Under the pieces are notes generated by a model, which did no database searches, was not told where the DNA came from, and saw only the letters and a program-made list of their open reading frames with translations. The translations under genes were made by a program, and so were the position numbers. From positions 202,831 through 266,830 of the forward strand of contig CAZXQA010000001.1 of the NCBI GenBank assembly GCA_964642835.1: a stretch of 64,000 nucleotides of DNA, in the 5' to 3' direction. Positions 3,851 through 59,983 of the stretch are shown piece by piece (position 1 is the stretch's first letter; the number at the start of each line of letters is the position of its first letter). Source of the stretch: an uncultured Candidatus Saccharibacteria bacterium. GTDB lineage: Bacteria > Patescibacteriota > Minisyncoccia > Phycocordibacterales > Zambryskibacteraceae.

Positions 3851-4738
3851 ATGAATATGAAAAACAACAAGAACGTGTGGGTCATTGCAGGCGCGATTGT
3901 AACGATTCTCGTGATCTGGGCCCTTGTGCATGTCTCGAGAAGCTCCCGCACTCTCCTTGGTTCGGCTACGTACTTCTGTGACGCTGGTAAATCGATCGAA
4001 GCAAAGTTCTATAGTGGCAAGGAAATGGAAGCTCCTCTTCCAGGCGAGATGCCTCAGCCTACAGGTACGCTTGATGTCTCTCTTGATAACGGCCCTGTCA
4101 TGAATCTTCGCCAGACGATTTCCGCAGATGGTGTTCGTTATGCCAATAGCGATGAGTCCTTAGTAGTTTGGAGTAAGGGTACGACCGTACTCGTCATGAG
4201 AAATAACACCATGGATCTTGCGTATACCAACTGCGATGCTGCGCGCCTTGCGAACGCGACTTCCACTCCCGCCCAACCTCTTCCCACGACACCTTTGAAA
4301 CCCGCTCCACCCGCTCCTGCTGAACCAGTAGCTTGCACCATGGAAGCAAGAATTTGTCCTGATGGTAGCTATGTGGGTCGCACGGGCCCGAAGTGCGAAT
4401 TTAGTGCTTGCCCAACTATGGTTGGTCAGGTTGATCTGGGCACACTCTCAGTGGGGCAAACGAGAGTTATTAACGGTGTCTCTATCTCCGTCAATAAAGT
4501 AGTCGAAGACAGTCGCTGCCCATCGAACGTTCAGTGTATCCAGGCCGGACGCGCGCTCGTTTCTGTGACCTTGGCAGCTGGAACAGAGGCGAATACAGTG
4601 AACCTTTCTTCTCAGCCGGTAGTACCATATGTCTTCGGAGGCTCGAAGATTTCCCTCATCGAAGTATTGCCTGAGCGTCATGAGACGACGCTTCCCACGC
4701 AATCAAGTTACCGCCTGACCTTCCGAGTCGAGAAATAA
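3851..4738 (+). CDS. membrane-anchored protein with MliC-like (lysozyme inhibitor) domain, Pro-rich linker and Cys-containing C-terminal domain
   Basis: N-terminal TM helix; CDAGKSIEAKFYSG...SADGVRYANSDESLVVWSKG pattern resembles MliC family; rest unassigned. Confidence 0.5.
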   Translation: MNMKNNKNVWVIAGAIVTILVIWALVHVSRSSRTLLGSATYFCDAGKSIEAKFYSGKEMEAPLPGEMPQPTGTLDVSLDNGPVMNLRQTISADGVRYANSDESLVVWSKGTTVLVMRNNTMDLAYTNCDAARLANATSTPAQPLPTTPLKPAPPAPAEPVACTMEARICPDGSYVGRTGPKCEFSACPTMVGQVDLGTLSVGQTRVINGVSISVNKVVEDSRCPSNVQCIQAGRALVSVTLAAGTEANTVNLSSQPVVPYVFGGSKISLIEVLPERHETTLPTQSSYRLTFRVEK

Positions 4739-18521: not shown

Positions 18522-18671
18522 TTCTTGCTTCTTTATTAGGGGAGGAGTATCGTTAATTCAGGCCTCGTTCCTCGGAGCCGTGCGCTCCGGTTCATTAACC
18601 GATCCATGGAGGTACCCTATTGAGGTAACCTATTTCTGGCTCATCTCCCGCTCCTAAGGTTGATTGGTACC

Positions 18672-18707
18672 AAAAGCGGGCCCTCGCAAGGGGCCCGCTT
18701 TATTTAT
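18672..18707 (+). terminator. rho-independent terminator after htpX
   Basis: AAGCGGGCCC-TCGCAA-GGGGCCCGCTT then TATTTAT. Confidence 0.65.
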
Positions 18708-18746
18708 ATTGAAAATCCGCCTCTTTTGAGCCATGTATTGACCCGC

Positions 18747-18775
18747 TTGACAAGATTAGATGGGGGGTGTATGAT
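18747..18775 (+). promoter_or_regulatory. near-consensus sigma70 promoter with no ORF downstream
   Basis: TTGACA (18747-18752), 17-nt spacer, TATGAT (18770-18775). Confidence 0.5.
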
Positions 18776-18781
18776 GAAATA

Positions 18782-19095
18782 GTTCCATTGGTGAGATCCA
18801 TTGTTCTTTCCAACAACCGTTGGCTGTGAGGCCAACCAGAAACGGAGTCAGGATGCGCAAGTATCACGACAGCGCGGGGGCGATGCTCCCCCTTAACCTT
18901 TTTTCCTCGGGAAGCAACAAGGCCGCCGTCGGCGCGCCCGTCATCCACGCCGGCGCGACGCCCGGCACGCAGACTCAGTAGCTGCCGGCCGCGCGGCCGT
19001 CAGTCATCCCCTGGTGGCGCAACCTATGACAAGGTCACCTCCGTAATATTCGGAATACCCTAGACCGGCTTCTCTTCAAGAGGCCGGTCTTTTTC
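18782..19095 (+). ncRNA. candidate structured noncoding RNA / leader of unknown class (promoter to terminator, no ORF)
   Basis: mutually exclusive hairpins near 18810-18838, internal GGGGG..CCCCC hairpin plus T-run near 18867-18905, GC-rich core, terminal hairpin GACCGGC..GCCGGTC plus TTTTT at 19062-19095. Confidence 0.35.
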
Positions 19096-19135
19096 TATAC
19101 CTAAACCCTGAGCTGTGCTATAAATGAGTTTCCAC

Positions 19136-19223
19136 GGAGGCGTCGCATAGTGGTCTAGTGCGCACGCTTGGAAAGCGTGTATACCGCAAGGTATCCAGGG
19201 TTCGAATCCCTGCGCCTCCGCCA
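19136..19223 (+). tRNA. tRNA-Ser (anticodon GGA), CCA encoded
   Basis: acceptor GGAGGCG/CGCCTCC, anticodon stem CACGC/GCGTG with loop TTGGAAA, long variable arm ATACC-GCAA-GGTAT, T-loop TTCGAAT. Confidence 0.9.
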
Positions 19224-19244
19224 AAGTAAAGAAGGGCGCGTGAT

Positions 19245-19275
19245 ATAGTTGAGCTGATGAAAAAAATTATTCTTC
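19245..19275 (+). repeat. duplicated leader/start module copy A1 (ATAGTTGAGCTGATGAAAAAAATTATTCTT)
   Basis: about 90% identical to 19759-19789; spans RBS region, ATG and first codons of the downstream gene. Confidence 0.6.
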
Positions 19276-19754
19276 CCGTAATTGCTCTCCTCGTTATCGC
19301 CGCCGGTCTTTTCTACTATGTGAGAGCTCCTTATAGTTACCCATGGATTGTGGGCCCTATTAATGATCTCTATAAAGATTCTTACGCGCAGGAAGGTGAG
19401 AGCGGGCAGAGGTGGGTGTCTCTCGACAAGAAATCGGGCTTCGATATCGTGAGCGTTGCTCAGGGAGATTTAAATAACGATGGGGTGGAAGACGCTTTCG
19501 TCTGGGCGACGTGGTGTGGCGCCTCGTGCGGTAGCCAGTTTGTCGTCATATTGGGAAACTCAACGGGGAAGCCTAGAGCTTTCCAACTGCCTGCGTCCTT
19601 GCCTCCTGAAGGGATTCTCACTTCTAGCGCAAACCAGGACCATGTCAAAAGCATGAACATTGAGAATGGCATACTCAGTATTAATCTTGAAAACCGAGCT
19701 GAAACGCTCCGATATAGATTGTCAGGGAAATTTTTAATTCGAGTGAAGGACTAA
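19257..19754 (+). CDS. small N-terminally membrane-anchored hypothetical protein (1 of 4 in tandem)
   Basis: MKK + hydrophobic helix; lower-GC coding sequence than surroundings. Confidence 0.55.
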   Translation: MKKIILPVIALLVIAAGLFYYVRAPYSYPWIVGPINDLYKDSYAQEGESGQRWVSLDKKSGFDIVSVAQGDLNNDGVEDAFVWATWCGASCGSQFVVILGNSTGKPRAFQLPASLPPEGILTSSANQDHVKSMNIENGILSINLENRAETLRYRLSGKFLIRVKD

Positions 19755-19758
19755 TGTT

Positions 19759-19789
19759 ATAGTTGAGCTTATGAAAAAACTTATTCTTA
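19759..19789 (+). repeat. duplicated leader/start module copy A2
   Basis: ATAGTTGAGCTTATGAAAAAACTTATTCTT matches copy A1. Confidence 0.6.
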
Positions 19790-20148
19790 TAGCTATCGCT
19801 GTTCTCGTTCTTATTGTTGCTGGGGTATTTATGTACGGTATTCGTGAAAATACTGAGGCACTCTTAACTCAAGAACAAGCACAAAATCTCGTGCATACAA
19901 CGTGGGGCGATTGTTCTCAAGGAAATTGTGCTGATGTTGAGGTGAGTGTTACTCAACAGGAGACAGGACAGTATGTAGTTACGGCGATCTTTACTGAGTT
20001 GGATGATTCTACCTCACACACAAAAAAGGTTTCGAGGGCTTCTTTCCAAAACGGTACCTGGATGCTTAGTGAGCCTATCGTTACTCGAGCTTGCCATCGC
20101 GGGCACGTAGACGGAAGTAAAGGCTTCACCTCCGCATTCTGTATATAA
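19771..20148 (+). CDS. small N-terminally membrane-anchored hypothetical protein (2 of 4), Cys-containing
   Basis: MKKLILIAIAVLVLIVAG anchor; no family motif. Confidence 0.55.
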   Translation: MKKLILIAIAVLVLIVAGVFMYGIRENTEALLTQEQAQNLVHTTWGDCSQGNCADVEVSVTQQETGQYVVTAIFTELDDSTSHTKKVSRASFQNGTWMLSEPIVTRACHRGHVDGSKGFTSAFCI

Positions 20149-20159
20149 CTATATTCAAA

Positions 20160-20191
20160 TAACTTCACACGTTAAAACTTATGAAAAAATA
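20160..20191 (+). repeat. duplicated leader/start module copy B1 (TAACTTCACACGTTAAAACTTATGAAAAAATA)
   Basis: 32/32 identical to 20672-20703. Confidence 0.65.
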
Positions 20192-20687
20192 CGCGTTGGT
20201 AGGAATTACTCTTCTCGCTCTCGGTGGGTTGGGGTATTTTATATTGGGGTGGTCTACATATGAGAATAAAGAGTATGGCTTCCGATTCGAATACCCATCC
20301 CGCCTCCACGTTTTAACGAATGGTTCTCAAAATGATGGTTTGATTCAAATAAGCGACAAGAGCGACTTTGAAAAAAATGAAGACGCCTTCCTCATGAAGG
20401 TATACGTCGAAGCAAATTCGTCTACAAATAATCTGAGATCAACTACAGGAGAAAAGAGGTTAGAAATCGCTGCTTTAAAGACGAGGTTGAATGTCCCCGT
20501 TACCGCCGATTTTTCCGGTGATCCTCCGTACGGAATCTATAGTGTTTCTATCCCTCTTGAGGCGCAACATAAGCTGGTGAGGATTACTATCACGATTCCT
20601 CAAAGTGATCTTCCCGAATACGGCGGAGAAAATAGGGATCTAAAACTTGCGAAGGAGATTCTTACAACCTTTAACTTCACACGTTAA
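20181..20687 (+). CDS. small N-terminally membrane-anchored hypothetical protein (3 of 4)
   Basis: MKKYALVGITLLALGGLGYFILGW anchor; the 3' end of this CDS contains repeat copy B2. Confidence 0.55.
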   Translation: MKKYALVGITLLALGGLGYFILGWSTYENKEYGFRFEYPSRLHVLTNGSQNDGLIQISDKSDFEKNEDAFLMKVYVEANSSTNNLRSTTGEKRLEIAALKTRLNVPVTADFSGDPPYGIYSVSIPLEAQHKLVRITITIPQSDLPEYGGENRDLKLAKEILTTFNFTR

Positions 20688-20703
20688 AACTTATGAAAAA
20701 ATA
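20672..20703 (+). repeat. duplicated leader/start module copy B2
   Basis: identical 32-mer to B1; overlaps the last codons of gene 3 and the start of gene 4. Confidence 0.65.
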
Positions 20704-21136
20704 TCTCAAAATAGCAGTTTCGGTCGTCACCGTAGCCGCTCTTGGATACGTGACTTTGAACTTCCTCGCTTCAAAAGGAATTATCACCACGGATGCTGTG
20801 CCGGGTGCTCGGACTATTTACAATGGCGAAGTACAGGTTAAGCCGGTGTCTCTTGCTGAGATTGAGGCCAAACTTAAAGCGCAAAACAAGATCTATGACG
20901 TTAGACCCGGGTACATCTCAATTTGTGCCGGAGGCCTTCCTGTAATGGGCGGATGCGAACTTGGACTCACGAGAGACAATATTCTTAGCGCTTATGCAGA
21001 CATCCCTGGAGCACCCAATGAAAGGAAGTTCAAAGCAGAAGTGAGGAAAAAACTGAAAGAAATCGGTGATGTCCTCTCGATCGAAGAAGACACGTGGGTT
21101 ATTACCACAACCTATCCGGTATCATACGTGTATTAG
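20693..21136 (+). CDS. small N-terminally membrane-anchored hypothetical protein (4 of 4)
   Basis: MKKYLKIAVSVVTVAALGYVTL anchor. Confidence 0.55.
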   Translation: MKKYLKIAVSVVTVAALGYVTLNFLASKGIITTDAVPGARTIYNGEVQVKPVSLAEIEAKLKAQNKIYDVRPGYISICAGGLPVMGGCELGLTRDNILSAYADIPGAPNERKFKAEVRKKLKEIGDVLSIEEDTWVITTTYPVSYVY

Positions 21137-21137
21137 C

Positions 21138-22070
21138 ATGAAAACGTTTCTTAGCATCACCGTCGCCGTTGTTTTGGTCGGCGGAGGATATGGGGTGATG
21201 CGAGGAAGATCAACGCAGGTTGAGAATGTGGAGCCGGCCACTCCTATCGAGAGAAGTGCCAAAATTCTTTTCCTCGGTGACATGATGTTTGACCGAGGGA
21301 TTCGCCAAGTGGCTCTCAAGAAGGGTGGGGATTTCCTCTTTGCGTGCGTTGACCCATGGCTAGAAGAGGCTGATCTTGTCGTCGGCAACCTGGAGGGGCC
21401 TATCACCGAGGAGGCTTCGGTAAGCGCGGGGAGTGAGGTCGGCAGTCCGCGGAATTATCAATTCACTTTTCCCACTTCAACCGCGCCTCTTCTCGCGAAG
21501 CATGGTGTCGGCCTCGTCAATCTCGGCAACAACCACATCGAGAACTTCGGCCTCAGTGGCATCGCGAGCACGAAGTGGTTCTTGGAAGAGGCTCGCGTCG
21601 CGTACTTCGGCGGACTTGCAGGCGATGCGCCTATCTATCGCGCGGAAGTAGGTGGTCTCAAACTCTCCTTCGTAAGTTACAACCAGTTCGGCGGCGAGTC
21701 GGTCGAGAAAGTGGCTCAGACGATTGCTCAAGAGCACGAGACAGGGCGACAAGTAATCGTCTACACCCACTGGGGTGAGGAATATGTGCCCGCTACTGAG
21801 CAAGTGAAGAGGATGGCCGCCCGCTTTGCTGCGAGCGGGGCGAATCTTATCATTGGCTCCCATCCACATGTCGTCCAAGAGCACGAATGGATAGGGAAGA
21901 CGCTTGTGTATTACTCCCTGGGGAACTTTATCTTCGACCAATACTTCGACACTGAGGTCACCCACGGTCTCACACTCATGGTTCACCTCTTCTCGGATCA
22001 TGTGAATGTTGAAGAGAAGCCAGTCACCATCACTCCTGATGGTCGAACGTGCGCATCCATTTCAGGCTAA
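21138..22070 (+). CDS. CapA/PGA_cap family membrane-anchored metallophosphoesterase-like protein (poly-gamma-glutamate capsule biosynthesis CapA homologue)
   Basis: N-terminal TM, LFLGDMMFDR and GSHPHVVQ motifs typical of CapA family; ATG at 21138 preferred over longer upstream ORF. Confidence 0.7.
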   Translation: MKTFLSITVAVVLVGGGYGVMRGRSTQVENVEPATPIERSAKILFLGDMMFDRGIRQVALKKGGDFLFACVDPWLEEADLVVGNLEGPITEEASVSAGSEVGSPRNYQFTFPTSTAPLLAKHGVGLVNLGNNHIENFGLSGIASTKWFLEEARVAYFGGLAGDAPIYRAEVGGLKLSFVSYNQFGGESVEKVAQTIAQEHETGRQVIVYTHWGEEYVPATEQVKRMAARFAASGANLIIGSHPHVVQEHEWIGKTLVYYSLGNFIFDQYFDTEVTHGLTLMVHLFSDHVNVEEKPVTITPDGRTCASISG

Positions 22071-22131: not shown

Positions 22132-22497
22132 GTGGAAATGGTCAGAATCAAAGAGGATCAGCCAGGATGGTCGTTTTCAAAGATCATCTCGATCGTCATC
22201 GTTACTGGTGTGCTGCTGGGAGCTGGGGTGTTCTTCTTCAAGAAGGGCGACTTTCGAGGTCCGATTGCGAGGGACCTGATGTCCGCAACGGATATCTCAC
22301 TCAAGAAGGAAGTGGCGCCACCACCTCTGTCCCCGGCAGACAAGGTCAAGGCGTGGGAGAAGGCTGCGGCCTCTCTCTACACGGCGCCTGTATTGCGCCA
22401 GCTCACTCGTGCCGAGCGTGCGAAGATCGACCCGAAGGCGCCGAAGCCCGAGGACCTGCCCGTGCTCCTGCGGGCGTACGTTCGCTCCCATCGATAG
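22132..22497 (+). CDS. hypothetical membrane protein
   Basis: one TM helix; Pro/Ala/Lys-rich tail; followed by strong terminator. Confidence 0.4.
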   Translation: MEMVRIKEDQPGWSFSKIISIVIVTGVLLGAGVFFFKKGDFRGPIARDLMSATDISLKKEVAPPPLSPADKVKAWEKAAASLYTAPVLRQLTRAERAKIDPKAPKPEDLPVLLRAYVRSHR

Positions 22498-22517: not shown

Positions 22518-22555
22518 GGGCCGCTTAAGTTCTCACGAACTTAAGCGGCTTTTCT
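22518..22555 (+). terminator. rho-independent terminator
   Basis: GCCGCTTAAGTT-CTCACGA-ACTTAAGCGGC then TTTTCTTTT. Confidence 0.7.
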
Positions 22556-22592
22556 TTTATTCTTGGTCGTGCACCCCCCTCTATTTAAAGGC

Positions 22593-23516
22593 ATGTATAC
22601 TGGAAATATGAAAGAATCACTCAAAATTCTAAGCGCTATAGTATTGCTCGGTTTGATTGGGTGGGGAATGAGTAAGTTTACCGTTATCAAAAAGGAAGAG
22701 GCTTCACCTATTGTTTACACAGACGGGCATGAAGAAGAAACCACCCCCACTCTTTACGGAGATGGGTATGTAGAGCACCGTGTTGAGTCCATTAATATAA
22801 GTCAATCTCCGGCTCGTAATCTCCTAAATCCTAAATGCCTTGAGAGAAATACGCTGGATTATCGTCTCGTTACAGACGACGGAGAGGTAGTCTTACCTAG
22901 CTTTATCGCCGTATTCGCCAAGCAAGAAGGGCTTCCTGAATGTATTTTTGACAATCTCCATCTCCTCTCTTCATTTTCCCGGGAGCGCATATTCTATGTC
23001 GGCATTGGAGAGAACTATGCCGCCTGGCACGCAGGTGATGAGCTCGGCGTGTATAGACTGGACCTTCGTAATGACACCCTCACTCATTTGCCTGTAATTT
23101 CAGGTTATTTAGATGGTTCAAGCGAGTACACAAAGATCTTCCATGACGATAGAACGGGAATCGCGTTTAAAAATAGAGGAATCTACGTTTTAGATATAAC
23201 AAAGGATACAGCTTCTCTCGTCTACACTCTTCCTGAAGGAGAGAGCTTTATCCAACTTCTCTCGGCAGGCGAAGAAGGTGGTTACCAACCTTCGTATGGC
23301 TCTATTGAGCTCTTTGGTGATGGCAATGTGCTATTTATCCCTGTGTATAGCCCTACATTAACTGAGAGTGGGGCACGCGTCTCCTATGATTCGAACGAAA
23401 ATTATGACGTATACACCAGACGCCAGACCGTCAAAGTAGATTCGCCGGATTGGTACTTTGGAAAGTACATATTATTCAAACAGCTTCGCACACTCGAACT
23501 TCCCATCCCGAGATAA
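22593..23516 (+). CDS. hypothetical secreted/anchored protein preceding tripartite exporter
   Basis: signal anchor LKILSAIVLLGLIGWG; no family motif. Confidence 0.45.
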   Translation: MYTGNMKESLKILSAIVLLGLIGWGMSKFTVIKKEEASPIVYTDGHEEETTPTLYGDGYVEHRVESINISQSPARNLLNPKCLERNTLDYRLVTDDGEVVLPSFIAVFAKQEGLPECIFDNLHLLSSFSRERIFYVGIGENYAAWHAGDELGVYRLDLRNDTLTHLPVISGYLDGSSEYTKIFHDDRTGIAFKNRGIYVLDITKDTASLVYTLPEGESFIQLLSAGEEGGYQPSYGSIELFGDGNVLFIPVYSPTLTESGARVSYDSNENYDVYTRRQTVKVDSPDWYFGKYILFKQLRTLELPIPR

Positions 23517-23571: not shown

Positions 23572-25032
23572 ATGTCAAAAATCAATTCAATCTGGAAGTT
23601 CCTTAAGAAAAAGAAGTACTGGATTATCGGAATTCTGGGCGCGTTGCTCGTAGGATGGTTTATGTTTGGTGGTAGCGAGGCTCCTCTGGAAACCGTCTCT
23701 CCCGTTCAAGCTGATCTCGTTCGCACTGTTCGCATTTCTGGCAAGGTGACTCCTCGTGAGAAGGTTGATCTCGGCTTCGAAGTCTCAGGTACGGTCGCTG
23801 GCGTAAATAGAGACGTAGGAGAGCGGGTAAGTCGTGGTCAAGTTCTTGTGAGCTTGGGTGCCGGCACAACGGCGGCCGAGATCCAGCGCTCCGAAGCAGA
23901 GCTCGCCTCGGCTCAAGCGGAACTCAACAAGCTCGACGGCTCGCAGATCTACCAGAGCAACGTGACGGGCGACAAGCGCTCAGTCGTCCAGGCCATTCGC
24001 GACGCTTACACGGCCGCGAGTGATGCCGTGCACAACAAAGCGGACCAAGTCTTCATCGACGCCAATACCGACCACCCTGAGATTATTGGTTACTTCAAGA
24101 ACTTCGATGATCTCCACAGCAAAGTGAACACAGGTCGCGTCGAGGCGGGCACCGTTCTCGACCAGTGGGGGAATCTTGTCGCTTCGCTCGGCGCCTCAAC
24201 CTACACCGATGCCCAACTCGAGATCTCGAAGACCTATCTTTCTAAAATTAGCGACTTCATCGCAAATCTCACCCGTGCCGTGAATGCCTTTGAAGTCACG
24301 AGTTATTCGACCCAAGCGCAGATTGACGATTACAAGAGCGCCATCCTCTCGGCTCGCGAGAGTATTAATACCGCGAACCAAGGCTTCATTAACGCTGAGA
24401 ATGGTCTCGCCGAGACTCTCTCGAGTGTGCCCATCCAAGTCTCTCGCGTCGAAGCGGCGCAAGCCTCACTTCTCAATTTGCGCTACCAGCTTGCCAAGAG
24501 CGCTCTTATCTCACCGATTTCTGGCATTATCTCTCGCCAGGACGCGAAGGTGGGACAAGGAATTACCGCCGGCACCTCGATCGTTTCCGTCATTAGTCCT
24601 GACTATATTATCGAAACCTACGTGCCTGAAGTTTCGATCCCAGGCATGAATGTGGGCAACATCGCCACTGTTACCTTCGACGCGTACGGTCCTGACGTGA
24701 CCTTCCCGGCCAAGGTAGACCACATCGATCCGGCCGAAACAGTTCGTGATGGCGTTTCCACGTATAAAGTGAAGCTCTCCTTCACTACCACAGACGAGCG
24801 CATTCGCTCCGGCCTCACCTCAAACGTCTCGATTGAGATTATGAGAAAGACTGACACCACTCTTATCCCGACCCGCGCCATTACCAAAGAAGACGCGGAG
24901 AGCTTCGTTTACGTTCTCGTTGGAGAAAAGAAGATGAAGAAGACCGTTGTGGTGGGCGAGAAGGATTCCCAAGGCAATATCGAACTTCTTTCTGGCCTCT
25001 CGCTCGAGGATAAGATCATCGTTAATCCATAA
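23572..25032 (+). CDS. HlyD-family periplasmic adaptor (membrane fusion protein) of ABC exporter, unusually long (486 aa)
   Basis: N-terminal TM, lipoyl-like hairpin motif VSRGQVLVSL, long coiled coil, C-terminal beta-barrel. Confidence 0.75.
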   Translation: MSKINSIWKFLKKKKYWIIGILGALLVGWFMFGGSEAPLETVSPVQADLVRTVRISGKVTPREKVDLGFEVSGTVAGVNRDVGERVSRGQVLVSLGAGTTAAEIQRSEAELASAQAELNKLDGSQIYQSNVTGDKRSVVQAIRDAYTAASDAVHNKADQVFIDANTDHPEIIGYFKNFDDLHSKVNTGRVEAGTVLDQWGNLVASLGASTYTDAQLEISKTYLSKISDFIANLTRAVNAFEVTSYSTQAQIDDYKSAILSARESINTANQGFINAENGLAETLSSVPIQVSRVEAAQASLLNLRYQLAKSALISPISGIISRQDAKVGQGITAGTSIVSVISPDYIIETYVPEVSIPGMNVGNIATVTFDAYGPDVTFPAKVDHIDPAETVRDGVSTYKVKLSFTTTDERIRSGLTSNVSIEIMRKTDTTLIPTRAITKEDAESFVYVLVGEKKMKKTVVVGEKDSQGNIELLSGLSLEDKIIVNP

Positions 25033-25033
25033 C

Positions 25034-26278
25034 ATGCCGCAGTTTATCCGCCTCGGATACTTCCTCGCCTGGCGTCAGGTACGCCGGGCCAACAAGTGGA
25101 CCACCGCGCTCATCATCTTTGTGATGACGCTCACCTTTTTGAACCTCGTTGTCGTTTCCGGCATCCTGGTTGGCCTTATCGAAGGAGCAGTAGAAGCCAA
25201 CAAGGAGTTCTACACGTCGGATATCATTATCTCAAGACTTAACAAGAAGGATTACATCGAGCAGACACCGACGGTCATGAACATTATCCAATCGATGCCA
25301 GAAGTAGCCGCCATTTCTCCGCGCTATCTCGGTTCTGGTCGCATCGAAGCGAACTACAAAACGGCCGCGAAGGAGGAAGAGATTGATTCGGCTGGCGCGT
25401 CCTTCGCTGGTATCGACCCCGTCGCGGAAAATAATCTCACTGGCGTTTCTCAGTTCGTGATCGCGGGCAGCTATCTCGAGCCAGGTGACTATGACCAAAT
25501 CTTAATTGGCGCCTATCTTCTCAAGGAATACTTCCCAGTCGAGTCATCGGCCATTCAAACATTGGCCAATGTCCATGTGGGCGACAAGGTGCGCGTCACT
25601 ATCGGAGACATTCAGCGCGAAATGACCGTCAAGGGCATTATTCAGTCCAAGGTCGACGAGATCTCATACCGCGCTTACTTTGTGGACACGCAGTTCCGTG
25701 ACCTTATCGGACGCAACGACTACAACGTGGGCGAGATCTCCGTGCGCTTGAAGCCGGGGAGTGATCCGATAGTTGTGAAGGAAGCTCTTCTTCGCTCCGG
25801 CGTCGGTGCCTATGCCAAAGTCCAGACTTTCGAAGATGCCCAGCCTAAATTTCTTATCGACATCAAGAACACCTTCGCTCTCTTGGGCAACATGATTAGT
25901 TCGATCGGCCTTGTCGTTGCCTCGATCACTATCTTCATCGTCATTTTCATCAATGCCATTACGCGTCGGAAATTCATCGGCATCTTGAAGGGAGTTGGCG
26001 TTTCTGGACGCACTATTGAAGCTTCCTATGTGTTCCAATCCTTCTTTTACGCCGCTATGGGTTCAGGGATCGGCCTCCTTCTTCTCTATGGTTTCTTGAA
26101 ACCTTTTATCACGGCACATCCGATTAATTTCCCATTCTCCGACGGCATCCTTGTCGCGCCGGTGAGTGGTACGATGCTCAAAGTTTCAATCCTTGTTCTT
26201 ACCACGGTTATCGCGGGCTATATCCCAGCGCGCATGATCGTCCGCAAGAACACGCTCGATTCCATTCTTGGCCGCTAA
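25034..26278 (+). CDS. ABC transporter permease, FtsX/MacB-type (large periplasmic domain plus 4 TM)
   Basis: TM1 - periplasmic domain - 3 C-terminal TMs; ATG at 25034 directly after adaptor stop. Confidence 0.75.
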   Translation: MPQFIRLGYFLAWRQVRRANKWTTALIIFVMTLTFLNLVVVSGILVGLIEGAVEANKEFYTSDIIISRLNKKDYIEQTPTVMNIIQSMPEVAAISPRYLGSGRIEANYKTAAKEEEIDSAGASFAGIDPVAENNLTGVSQFVIAGSYLEPGDYDQILIGAYLLKEYFPVESSAIQTLANVHVGDKVRVTIGDIQREMTVKGIIQSKVDEISYRAYFVDTQFRDLIGRNDYNVGEISVRLKPGSDPIVVKEALLRSGVGAYAKVQTFEDAQPKFLIDIKNTFALLGNMISSIGLVVASITIFIVIFINAITRRKFIGILKGVGVSGRTIEASYVFQSFFYAAMGSGIGLLLLYGFLKPFITAHPINFPFSDGILVAPVSGTMLKVSILVLTTVIAGYIPARMIVRKNTLDSILGR

Positions 26279-26287
26279 TCAACTTTT

Positions 26288-26968
26288 ATGACCACTCTTA
26301 TTACTGTCGCCAATCTTAAGAAATCCTTCAAAGACGGAGAGAAGGAGACACACGTTCTCAAGGGGATCGACTTTATGGCCGAAGAAGGGGAGTGGATCTC
26401 GATCATGGGACGCTCTGGCGCGGGAAAATCAACTTTCATGTATCAAATATCCCTTCTCGATGATCCAACTTCCGGAGAGATCACTGTCTTTGACAAAAAT
26501 ACTCACACCATGCACCCTGACGAGAAAACAGCTTTCCGCTTGAACGAACTTGGTTACGTGTTCCAGGATTACGCGCTTCTACCAGATCTCACCGCTACCG
26601 AGAATGTGGCTGTGCCGCTCATGATGCAGGGCAAAAGTAAGGAGGAGGCCTACAAACAAGCTCGCACCTCGCTCGAGCGCGTGGGTCTCGGTCATCGTCT
26701 CGACAACCTTCCTTCGCAAATGTCTGGCGGGGAGCAACAGCGCACCTCCATTGCTCGCGCTCTGGCTCATAAGCCGCGTATTCTCTTTGCCGATGAACCC
26801 ACCGCGAACCTCGATAACGAATCTTCGAAGACGGTTATGGAGCTTTTCAAACAAGTGCATAAGGATGGTCAAACGATCATCATGGTGACTCACGAAGAAG
26901 AGTATAGTAAATTCGCCGATCGTATCGTGCGGCTTGATGATGGGAAAATTGTCTCAGGTCACCACTAG
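26288..26968 (+). CDS. ABC transporter ATP-binding protein (MacB/LolD-type)
   Basis: Walker A GRSGAGKST, signature MSGGEQQRTSIARAL, Walker B ILFADEPTANLD. Confidence 0.9.
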   Translation: MTTLITVANLKKSFKDGEKETHVLKGIDFMAEEGEWISIMGRSGAGKSTFMYQISLLDDPTSGEITVFDKNTHTMHPDEKTAFRLNELGYVFQDYALLPDLTATENVAVPLMMQGKSKEEAYKQARTSLERVGLGHRLDNLPSQMSGGEQQRTSIARALAHKPRILFADEPTANLDNESSKTVMELFKQVHKDGQTIIMVTHEEEYSKFADRIVRLDDGKIVSGHH

Positions 26969-31750: not shown

Positions 31751-32740
31751 ATGAAAAACATCAGAGTTGCTATCAACGGTATGGGTCGCATTGGTCGCGC
31801 CTTCTACAAGTTGGCCAAGGAACGTGAGGGGATTGAAGTCGTCGCCGTGAACGATCTGGGAGAGAAGGAGAACATCGCTTATCTCCTCGCCCACGACACC
31901 GTCTATGGCGCTTGGCCTGGCACCTTTGATGCTCAATTTATCTCCGAAAAAGATCCGGCGAAACTTCCGTGGAAAGATCTCAACGTCGACGTCGTGATCG
32001 AATCGACCGGCCTCTTCACGAGTTATGCCTCGGCTAAGGCCCACCTTGATGCCGGCGCCAAGCGTGTTGTCGTCACCGCTCCGATGAAGGACGATCCGAT
32101 CCCAGGTATTGAAGGCGCGACAGTCCTTATGGGAGTAAACGAGGAAAAGCTCGCGAGCTCCACTATCACCTCGAACGCTTCTTGCACGACCAACGCCGGC
32201 TCGCCACTCATCGCCATTCTCGACGAAGCTCTAGGAATAGAGAAGGCGCTCTTGAACACGACACATGGCTATACCGCCACGCAAGCCTTGGTCGACGGTC
32301 CATCGAAGAAGGGTTGGCGCGAAGGTCGCGCCGCCGCGCAAAACATCATCCCGTCCTCCACGGGCGCTGCCATCGCGGTGACGAAGGCTTTCCCCAAGCT
32401 CACCGGACTCTTTGATGGCATCTCCGTGCGCGTCCCGGTCCCAGCCGGATCCATTGTCGACATCACCTTTATTTCGAAAAGGAATACAACCGCCGAAGAG
32501 GTAAATAACATTCTCAAGCAGGCCGCGGAGGAGAAGCGCTGGGCTGGCATCTTTGCCGTTACCGAAGAAGAACTCGTCTCCTCGGACATCTTAGGCTCGC
32601 ACTATGGCTCCATTGCCGATCTCCAGATGACCCGTGTTGTCGGTGGCAATCTCGTCAAAGTTCTCGCCTGGTATGACAACGAGAGTGGGTATGCCCATAC
32701 ACTTCTTAGCCACGTGGAGAAACTGGGCGCTCTCGCGTAA
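31751..32740 (+). CDS. gap: type I glyceraldehyde-3-phosphate dehydrogenase
   Basis: NGMGRIGR Rossmann motif, active site SNASCTTN. Confidence 0.95.
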   Translation: MKNIRVAINGMGRIGRAFYKLAKEREGIEVVAVNDLGEKENIAYLLAHDTVYGAWPGTFDAQFISEKDPAKLPWKDLNVDVVIESTGLFTSYASAKAHLDAGAKRVVVTAPMKDDPIPGIEGATVLMGVNEEKLASSTITSNASCTTNAGSPLIAILDEALGIEKALLNTTHGYTATQALVDGPSKKGWREGRAAAQNIIPSSTGAAIAVTKAFPKLTGLFDGISVRVPVPAGSIVDITFISKRNTTAEEVNNILKQAAEEKRWAGIFAVTEEELVSSDILGSHYGSIADLQMTRVVGGNLVKVLAWYDNESGYAHTLLSHVEKLGALA

Positions 32741-59236: not shown

Positions 59237-59983
59237 TTACTTATTATCAATAAATTTGAAAGTCTTCATGAGTCGATCGAAATCGAAAAGGTCTTGCCTC
59301 AACGAAGACGCGTAATGCCCTTCGCGAACCCATGTGGTCAAATTGCCGTTGTATTGTTTTTCCGCTTCTAGGAGTTCAGGGGAGTGAGCAGTTAATCGAT
59401 AAATTAACCAACCTTGCACTACCACCTGCGGCCCATATACTTCATAATCCTGGACAACAGCAGAACCCAAAGCATTAAATAGATTAGGGTAATAAAACAC
59501 AGGATATCCCTGTTCCGTTTTAAAGGTTCCTTGACCATAGATGTTAAAATTTGGCACCACAGGATTTGGTGTGAAGAGGCTCTCTTTTCGTTCAGAGATT
59601 TTTGTTAGAAATTGCCCATCGACACAAATCTCCGGGGAGCTTTCATTGAAGCCCGTTAAACCAATATCGATATAATCAGGGCGAGCAGTAAAGTTCAGCA
59701 CGTCCGAGGGAGCGATGGCGGAAGGGAAATAGGTTTTATGTGAAAATTCGCTAGGCACGCATTCAGACAAATCAAGGTTCCGATGAACCAAAACTACGTC
59801 GCCCCAACTTGTCGGATATTCAAAGCTTACATTCAATTCGCTATTTACATAACTCTTCCATTCTGAAGTTATTTCGGTAGGCGGAACAAAATAAAATCGG
59901 TACCAAATTCCGGCTCCCACCACTGCAAGGAGTAATACTGACAATATAAATCGCGAAGCCTGGCCCATAGTTTGTATTGACAT
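59237..59983 (-). CDS. hypothetical secreted/anchored protein
   Basis: signal anchor FILSVLLLAVVGAGIW. Confidence 0.5.
   Translation of the reverse strand: MSIQTMGQASRFILSVLLLAVVGAGIWYRFYFVPPTEITSEWKSYVNSELNVSFEYPTSWGDVVLVHRNLDLSECVPSEFSHKTYFPSAIAPSDVLNFTARPDYIDIGLTGFNESSPEICVDGQFLTKISERKESLFTPNPVVPNFNIYGQGTFKTEQGYPVFYYPNLFNALGSAVVQDYEVYGPQVVVQGWLIYRLTAHSPELLEAEKQYNGNLTTWVREGHYASSLRQDLFDFDRLMKTFKFIDNK

Follow-up and report, generated by a model that had tools for sequence, protein, structure and literature searches.

Bacteria of the candidate phyla radiation (CPR), or Patescibacteria, live attached to other cells and spend much of their tiny genomes on small membrane-anchored proteins. Strain-variable surface-gene hot spots beside tRNA genes and deletions between short repeats are both known kinds of genome change. 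The locus described here is a block of four genes, g1–g4, at positions 19230–21137 of a 64-kb stretch of contig CAZXQA010000001.1. This whole stretch is called the window; it sets the scope of the analysis, and all coordinates are window positions on the + strand unless marked. With a probability of roughly 0.6, the block is a flexible, compositionally foreign or fast-evolving segment of an envelope operon in a member of the Parcubacteria/Paceibacterota (CPR), whose gene content changes by recombination at repeats located at the gene starts. New in this case are the genes themselves, of which two are orphans and one belongs to a small unnamed family with a confident structural model, and, on thin evidence, the coincidence of the breakpoints with expression-and-anchor modules. 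The finding is modest: it concerns a fairly ordinary flexible surface-protein hot spot, and a new mechanism is not demonstrated.

Flexible (“metagenomic”) islands carry genes for cell-surface proteins and differ among strains that occur together. An example is the cell-wall-associated island of Haloquadratum walsbyi (PMC4535781). The g1–g4 block resembles such islands in its atypical composition, its predicted surface products, its position next to a tRNA gene, and the apparent presence/absence and replacement of genes at approximately 98–99% identity with the flanks conserved. However, with 1.9 kb and four genes the block is very small, and it is embedded in an operon. Its breakpoints lie at gene-start modules of 20–32 nt and not at flanking core genes, and its variability is read from one short contig.

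Deletion and duplication between short direct repeats, by RecA-independent slipped mispairing or short-homology recombination, are established bacterial genetics. The block features a 512-bp segment between perfect 32-bp direct repeats, and a variant keeps exactly one copy of the repeat. However, the repeat consists of the end of g3 and the start of g4 copied before g3, and short-repeat deletion leaves the origin of this repeat and the direction of the event, insertion or deletion, unexplained. Integron gene cassettes likewise are units of one open reading frame (ORF) bounded by a repeated junction, lie in one orientation, and place unrelated ORFs side by side. The block differs from them by having neither an integrase nor attC hairpins, by at least two units that carry their own promoter, and by a repeat that reaches into the next gene and includes its start codon and first codons.

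Leaderless genes with extended −10 promoters are known from Actinobacteria, Deinococcus, and others. The block would resemble these systems in a TGnTAnnnT box that ends 6–9 nt before the ATG at g1, g2, and many other genes of the window, and in the rarity of Shine–Dalgarno (SD) motifs.

Organization of the block

The block is bordered on the left by a tRNA-Ser gene with anticodon GGA (19136–19223; detected by ARAGORN and by Rfam model RF00005 with 57.4 bits) and on the right by a CapA-like gene (21138–22070). Between them lie g1 (19257–19754, 165 amino acids [aa]), g2 (19771–20148, 125 aa), g3 (20181–20687, 168 aa), and g4 (20693–21136, 147 aa). The intergenic spacers measure 16, 32, and 5 nt, the capA gene starts 1 nt past the stop codon of g4, and the coding density of the block amounts to 97%. 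A preliminary description of the locus, made from the sequence alone, had reported four tandem genes of 125–168 aa directly 3′ of tRNA-Ser and a block that ends at a CapA-family gene. Coordinates and lengths are confirmed, and the product of the capA gene matches PF09587 with E = 4.5e-49. Its score of 167.7 bits against a cut-off of 27, reached over profile positions 1–255 of 255, places it in the PGA_cap family. The CapA-like protein carries an N-terminal anchor, and its gene has a normal composition, with a GC content at third codon positions (GC3) of 0.617.

Among 1000 dinucleotide shuffles of the block, 1.5% contained one ORF of 125 aa or more, and none contained four. The genes g1–g4 are regarded as real coding sequences because tiling ORFs of this kind are absent from the shuffles, because g4 differs from its counterpart in a strain of 98% identity by 5 synonymous and 1 non-synonymous changes, and because the homologues of g2 and g4 are conserved. 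The corresponding ratio for CapA is 16:4.

All four proteins begin with MKK, followed by exactly one hydrophobic segment at approximately residues 4–27. The Kyte–Doolittle maxima over 19 residues range from 1.98 to 3.07, and there is no second transmembrane (TM) segment. In BLASTP comparisons among the four, the N-terminal anchors align—those of g1 and g2 with 64% identity over 22 aa—and the ectodomains give nothing. Hydropathy and BLASTP hence agree with the architecture first proposed: an MKK start, a single hydrophobic helix, and unrelated C-terminal domains. The prepilin motif K/R-G-F/(A,T)-x-x-E of class III signal peptides is missing in g1–g4, which start with MKK[I/L/Y] and have no G-F.

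The four gene products would be unrelated bitopic proteins with a short Lys-rich cytoplasmic N terminus, one TM helix, and an ectodomain of approximately 100–140 aa outside the cell. Surface exposure is suggested by the helix after MKK, the conserved Cys pairs in g2, and the helix 2–27 in the model of g4. At the cell surface or in the envelope, the proteins would most likely serve as binding or scaffolding modules. CPR bacteria are generally credited with an epibiotic lifestyle, to which such an extracytoplasmic role would fit.

Repeats at the gene starts

The starts of g3 and g4 share module 2, an identical 32-mer with the sequence TAACTTCACACGTTAAAACTTATGAAAAAATA. The first copy (20160–20191) spans the g2–g3 spacer and the first 11 nt of g3. 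The second copy (20672–20703) encodes the last residues N F T R and the stop codon of g3 and continues through the 5-nt spacer into the first 11 nt of g4. For comparison, the 49 gene starts of the window were aligned in register from −30 to +12, giving 1176 pairs. The g3 and g4 starts agree at 30 of 31 in-register positions and are identical over 32 consecutive nt; the longest exact run in the background of all pairs is 12 nt. The 32-mer carries no −10-like box. Because the identity around it ends abruptly on both sides, module 2 reads as a true and recent duplication of a gene junction. The preliminary description had noted both the identical 32-mer and its overlap with the last codons of g3; both statements hold, and the duplication is exact, unique in the window, and far outside the background.

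Module 1 is shared by g1 and g2. Its first copy (19241–19265) consists of TGA-TATAGT, a 7-nt spacer, and ATG AAA AAA of g1; the second (19755–19779) consists of TGT-TATAGT, a 7-nt spacer, and ATG AAA AAA of g2. The string TATAGTTGAGCT[G/T]ATGAAAAAA is found at 19244–19265 and 19758–19779, and the likeness extends to 77% over 65 nt, into the anchor codons. The copies of module 1 are spaced by 514 nt and those of module 2 by 512 nt. With up to 3 mismatches, the window contains no further copy of the module 1 string or of the 32-mer, and shuffles contained none. IMG/VR was also scanned for exact occurrences of module 1 and of the 32-mer core, and the JGI metagenomes for the latter; neither sequence was found.

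The g1 and g2 starts are identical at 25 of 31 positions, with a background mean of 10.9 and a standard deviation (sd) of 2.5. The start of g1 is also identical at 21 of 31 positions to that of an unrelated housekeeping-type gene at 31751. A TAnnnT box ending 4–12 nt before the start codon is present at 22 of the 49 gene starts, compared with 7% at random positions, and 11 of these 22 carry the TGn extension; SD-like tetramers occur at 7 of the 49 only. From these counts, the genome appears to rely on extended −10 promoters positioned for leaderless or near-leaderless mRNAs. A literature search found no description of leaderless-dominated genes for Patescibacteria. Module 1 is largely the generic leaderless promoter of this genome (TGnTATAGT-N7-ATG) plus MKK, with some real extra similarity, and the anchor module of g1 and g2 probably has an older shared origin.

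The module of approximately 31 nt that had been proposed for g1 and g2, covering the ribosome-binding region, ATG, and first codons, is therefore shared, but most of it is the promoter found at many starts. The same description had named a genome-wide ribosome-binding consensus as the explanation that would undo its reading of the 5′ identities. For g1 and g2, this explanation holds by half, in the form of a promoter consensus; for the 32-mer of g3 and g4, it does not hold.

No inverted repeats or hairpins are found at the junctions, and the junction RNAs are less stably folded than shuffles (z = +0.3 to +1.5), which fits SD-independent start regions and not attC-like sites.

Variation between closely related strains

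Look-ups with the exact proteins led to separately assembled sequences, in Logan and ENA, of the same organism or one very close to it. The most informative order of genes is that of ENA contig L086 (631 nt), which stems from a strain of approximately 98–99% identity (99.3% over g2) and reads gX, TGATATAGTTGAGTTTATG-g2, 32-mer, g4. The first 172 nt of this contig encode the C terminus (...VEYPDS) of gX, which has no counterpart anywhere in the 64-kb window. The contig becomes homologous to the window at 19755, where the g2 promoter module begins. The module itself reads TGATATAGTTGAGTTTATG in L086 and is a mix of the g1 and g2 versions. The g2 protein is identical, with one synonymous change in its gene. 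After g2 follows a single 32-mer and then 22 nt of g4 codons, so that the contig joins window positions 19755–20191 straight to 20672–20725. The segment missing from L086 is the g3 unit of 512 bp (20160–20671), made up of one 32-mer and the body of g3. In the L086 strain, gX thus appears to replace g1, and the 512-bp g3 unit appears to be absent, with one copy of the repeat kept. Both breakpoints coincide with modules.

Further assemblies resemble the window. The Logan contigs L001 and L002 (k = 31) are 100% identical to it and stop at 20189 inside the 32-mer, as expected at k = 31 because the repeat measures at least 30 nt. An identical copy of g1 is present in Logan assemblies of at least two runs. 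The ENA contigs L083 and L084 are approximately 98% identical to the window and colinear with it from the 3′ part of g3 via g4 to capA. Contig L084 reads g3-32mer-g4-capA and comes from the same sample as L086. In L083 and L084, the 3′ end of g3 differs from the window by 2 synonymous and 1 non-synonymous changes. No further contigs came from searching with the exact sequences of g3 and g4.

At larger evolutionary distances, a scan with CapA of 185,579 GTDB species genomes gave a best match of 58% identity. A homologue of g1–g4 was found at 0 of 80 capA loci, and the context of capA is not conserved. The closest CapA relatives belong to metagenome-assembled genomes of Parcubacteria/Paceibacterota with at most 58% identity, and they are therefore too distant to judge the variability of the block at tRNA-Ser.

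Base composition

The GC content is 0.444 in the block and averages 0.531 in the window. No other 1.9-kb stretch of the 64 kb is lower, and the block lies approximately 3.7 sd below the mean. GC3 amounts to 0.506 for g1, 0.357 for g2, 0.432 for g3, and 0.466 for g4, with a gene mean of 0.625 and an sd of 0.096; the value of g2 is the lowest in the window. Windowed GC and GC3 (0.357–0.506 versus 0.625) both bear out the visible AT richness relative to the flanks that had been reported for the block. Its delimitation as a low-GC block at 19230–21137 stands insofar as it is the lowest 1.9 kb of the window, but the same property recurs at 22563–23516 and 59237–59983 (−).

Six of the seven genes with the lowest GC3 in the window encode single-TM proteins without a family, namely g1–g4 and the genes at 22563–23516 (+) and 59237–59983 (−) with GC3 values of 0.431 and 0.402. 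Low GC3 marks a class of anchored orphan genes that are scattered in the genome beyond the block. Anchored proteins of known family, LemA and CapA, have a normal GC3. The seventh gene encodes a small GIY-YIG nuclease (961–1230, +; PF01541, E = 1.7e-16; GC3 0.433) and may be a mobile or selfish element.

Products of g1–g4

None of g1–g4 has an above-threshold match in Pfam, NCBIfam, PADLOC, or PHROGs, and no toxin, defence, or phage family is matched by any of them. A polymorphic toxin or secreted family was considered: The part shared by the four genes comprises only promoter, MKK, and anchor, and there are no toxin, immunity, or defence matches. The earlier suggestion of a polymorphic secreted family is accordingly not supported, since g1–g4 do not form a family.

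The proteins g1 and g3 gave self-hits only (among 5.8 billion clusters for g1) and no PDB sequence match of note. The ectodomain of g1 features a CxxxC pair along with one DxNxDGxxD loop that is FG-GAP-like and Ca-loop-like, with sub-threshold matches to FG-GAP_3 (E = 0.009) and an integrin alpha blade (E = 0.05). The protein g3 consists of a TM anchor and an ectodomain without Cys; it has no match in Pfam, NCBIfam, or the PDB.

The protein g2 consists of a TM anchor and an ectodomain of approximately 95 aa. Four homologues were found in the search of 5.8 billion clusters and three or four further loci in JGI/ENA metagenomes, at 50–70% identity. They align with g2 over the ectodomain only, from approximately residue 30, and share four invariant Cys and a YVVTAIFTELDDS core. 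Their N termini are different (MKYNKGF..., with long linkers) and have a pilin-like start. The homologues are single genes on Patescibacteria contigs of 35–45% GC. The model of g2 is NTF2/cystatin/VirB8-like at medium confidence (predicted local distance difference test [pLDDT] 70), and g2 looks like a disulfide-bonded NTF2/cystatin-like ectodomain on a membrane anchor. The ectodomain is 63–70% identical to proteins of low-GC Patescibacteria, whereas CapA reaches at most 58% to any GTDB species representative. At least in the case of g2, the ectodomain probably came from low-GC Patescibacteria and was fused to the local promoter and anchor module shared with g1.

Bitopic proteins of the VirB8/PrgL/TraM type also combine an N-terminal TM helix with an NTF2-like ectodomain. 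However, g2 has an identity of 7–8% to them, is much shorter, and carries two conserved Cys pairs; moreover, the NTF2/cystatin cone is a very common fold. A role of g2 as a VirB8-like component of a type IV secretion system is not supported, as no type IV secretion genes lie nearby. The region upstream of the g2-domain homologues (L087 41–100, L089, L090 95–154, and L091 4392–4451) is itself conserved, with the sequence ATTATTAAAGGTCATATTTAACTTAG...AACTTTATG. It has a TAACTT-N10-AACTT-ATG layout that resembles the one of the 32-mer in the window (TAACTT-N10-AACTT-ATG). This likeness could be chance or a shared start-region element.

The protein g4 consists of a TM anchor and an alpha/beta ectodomain. 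It has 39 relatives in a full HMMER scan of 1.84 billion representatives, which are mostly anchored and 130–170 aa long. Conserved motifs of the family include RTxYxGxVxIEP, GFGPxSF, KDIPGxPDxEKFKxEVR, and SWxI...YPW. The family of anchored proteins to which g4 belongs is small, uncharacterised, and under purifying selection. The AlphaFold model computed with the alignment of the relatives has a pLDDT of 91.5 and features a TM helix at residues 2–27 and an alpha/beta domain. Foldseek found nothing significant with this model; the sole high-probability match was TBP with a TM-score of 0.42, and the modelled fold is weakly TBP-like and otherwise would be new to the PDB. The g4 homologue with a readable context, P0010, is a singleton next to glycosyltransferase genes and a restriction-modification cluster. 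Another homologue, P0012, lies on a contig of 653 nt without context.

The g4 family and the disulfide-bonded NTF2-like ectodomain of g2 are candidates for structural or binding studies.

Origin of the block

For the reading of the block as a flexible segment, gene content would change between near-identical strains via recombination at short stretches that the gene starts have in common. The g3 unit, bracketed by the 32-bp direct repeats, would be present or absent precisely, and the promoter module would mark the point at which g1 is swapped for another gene. The mechanism would most likely combine homology-facilitated replacement with recombination or slippage between the short direct repeats, and no dedicated recombinase is implied. 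This retains part of the recent cassette-style duplication of a 5′ module that had been proposed at first: The 32-mer, the breakpoints of L086, and the joining of the g2 ectodomain speak for it, whereas the likeness of g1 and g2 is largely generic promoter. A wider proposal is that short gene-start modules, namely the promoter with MKK and the 32-mer across stop codon, spacer, and start, are working parts of an integrase-independent cassette exchange in CPR, in which units of approximately 0.4–0.5 kb—a module and one ectodomain ORF—are swapped, inserted, and deleted among strains and lineages by short-homology recombination. It is highly doubtful; if true, such an exchange would let the organism refit its surface with domains taken from other Patescibacteria and keep using the local expression/anchor module.

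Several points weigh against a flexible segment. The strain polymorphism rests on one assembled contig of 631 nt that reaches 22 nt beyond the 32-mer. This contig could be a graph-traversal chimera, or its strain may have a longer repeat and a gene after g2 that merely shares the first codons of g4. Whether the path is chimeric or the shared 5′ module is longer, the break in L086 coincides with a module. The low GC could stem from relaxed selection on lineage-specific genes instead of transfer, and one g4 homologue is AT-rich within its own genome of 52% GC. Furthermore, g1 and g3 are without homologues, and promoters and leaderless starts are taken from motifs alone.

In one alternative, the block would belong stably to the capA envelope operon of this lineage and be specific to it, with repeats left by one old local duplication, a variant produced by the assembly, and a low GC caused by weak codon selection on poorly conserved genes of low expression. 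The shortness of L086, which stops 22 nt after the repeat, agrees with this, as do the colinearity of g3(3′)-g4-capA in L083 and L084 at 98%, the equal AT richness of the other single-TM orphan ORFs in the window, and the AT-rich g4 homologue in another GC-rich genome. A stable operon is nevertheless unlikely: The 172 nt of L086 encode the end of a gene absent from the 64 kb, its homology starts exactly at the promoter module, and a 20-nt repeat is unlikely to yield such a chimera. In addition, genes that otherwise cannot be aligned share the 32-mer at 100% identity, which points to a recent event, and the g2 ectodomain is closer to proteins of low-GC Patescibacteria (63–70%) than CapA is to any relative (at most 58%). 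Improbable as well is a remnant of an integrative island that a tyrosine or serine integrase directed to tRNA-Ser and that has since lost integrase and att sites. The location directly 3′ of tRNA-Ser, the lowest GC in the window, and block genes with no or patchy homologues would suit such a remnant. However, no integrase, IntI-like gene, or other recombinase is found among the genes within approximately 10 kb on either side of the block, the 3′ end of the tRNA gene (25 nt) has no second copy in the 64 kb at up to 3 mismatches, and the whole block has no match in phage and plasmid collections at blastn sensitivity. The block also measures only 1.9 kb, runs co-directionally in an operon with capA without a terminator, and has its breakpoints internally at gene starts and not at the tRNA. 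Of the hallmarks of a tRNA island, it has the composition (GC 0.444 versus 0.531) and neither the integrase nor attL/attR. The absence of a visible integrase or att repeat had been noted from the start and is upheld. The insertion at a tRNA proposed alongside it finds no support in these searches, and the GTDB relatives, too distant and without conserved synteny, provide none.

Descent of g1–g4 from one gene by tandem duplication, with ectodomains diverged past recognition and gene conversion keeping the 5′ ends alike, would account for the common MKK-TM-ectodomain architecture, the nearly equal repeat spacings of 514 and 512 nt, and the 64% identity of the g1 and g2 anchors over 22 aa. It is very improbable, as the ectodomains share no similarity, the model topologies of g2 and g4 differ (NTF2-like versus TBP-like), and g3 and g4 become unalignable right after the 32-mer. 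Moreover, g2 and g4 have separate sets of homologues, neither of which is found in such arrays. Barely credible is an integron-like or other site-specific cassette system in which the modules are sites for a recombinase encoded elsewhere, even though breakpoints lie at repeated junction modules and the unit consists of one module and one ORF. No IntI-like gene lies nearby, the junctions have no inverted repeat or hairpin and fold worse than shuffles, and each module has two copies in the 64 kb and none in the IMG/VR or JGI metagenome scans. An integron cassette array in the strict sense was rejected for want of an adjacent IntI and of attC-like hairpins at the junctions. A flexible envelope-operon segment remains the preferred reading. 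If the foreign composition, the strain difference, and the coincidence of exchange points with modules all hold, the locus could be a PCR-sized handle on the turnover of the surface repertoire.

Transcription unit and surrounding region

The genes g1 and g2 would each have their own extended −10 promoter placed for a leaderless mRNA, as read from the motifs. The genes g3, g4, capA, and orf22132—a small anchored ORF of 121 aa at 22132–22497—would follow without terminators or SD motifs and with unstructured, A/T-rich start regions. Between 19090 and 22518, no convincing terminator is found on the + strand, save a weak one inside g2. Because of this, g1–g4, capA, and orf22132 are probably transcribed together, with internal promoters located ahead of g1 and g2, and orf22132 is probably the last gene of the unit that runs from g1 through capA. 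An intrinsic terminator with a 15-bp stem and a subsequent T run follows at 22518–22551. Another intrinsic terminator upstream of tRNA-Ser (19062–19090; a 12-bp stem with 7 GC pairs, then a T run) would close a transcription unit before the tRNA gene.

The 5′ end of orf22132 (22141–22230) contains a segment that is unalignable with L083 (1514–1573; 90 nt versus 60 nt). The called product has 109 aa in the strain of 98% identity and 121 aa in the window, a further minor structural difference within this operon. Part of the terminator upstream of tRNA-Ser, namely its left arm and loop (19063–19079), forms a 17-nt inverted match (16/17) with a site inside the 3′ end of capA (22009–22025). This match brackets the block and capA and is probably chance.

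The upstream neighbours encode MFS, RNase J, an SBP_bac_5 solute-binding protein, SecG, GroES/EL, LemA, and HtpX. Downstream of the block, capA, orf22132, and the terminator at 22518–22551 are followed by an AT-rich anchored ORF and then by an HlyD-like/FtsX/ABC export system of the MacAB type (23572–26968). An anchored protein with an MliC (lysozyme-inhibitor) domain is encoded at 3851–4738. The export system and the MliC-domain protein add to the envelope theme of the region.

A gene-free gap of 614 nt (18522–19135) separates htpX from tRNA-Ser. It contains a near-consensus promoter-like site, TTGACA-17-TATGAT, at 18747–18775 and the strong terminator at 19062–19090. The RNA of approximately 314 nt between them is GC-rich and has a folding energy of −124.5 kcal/mol (z = −3.45 compared with shuffles). 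The region 18747–19095 matches no Rfam family, even at E-values up to 10, and the predicted RNA is a candidate for an unannotated structured small RNA.

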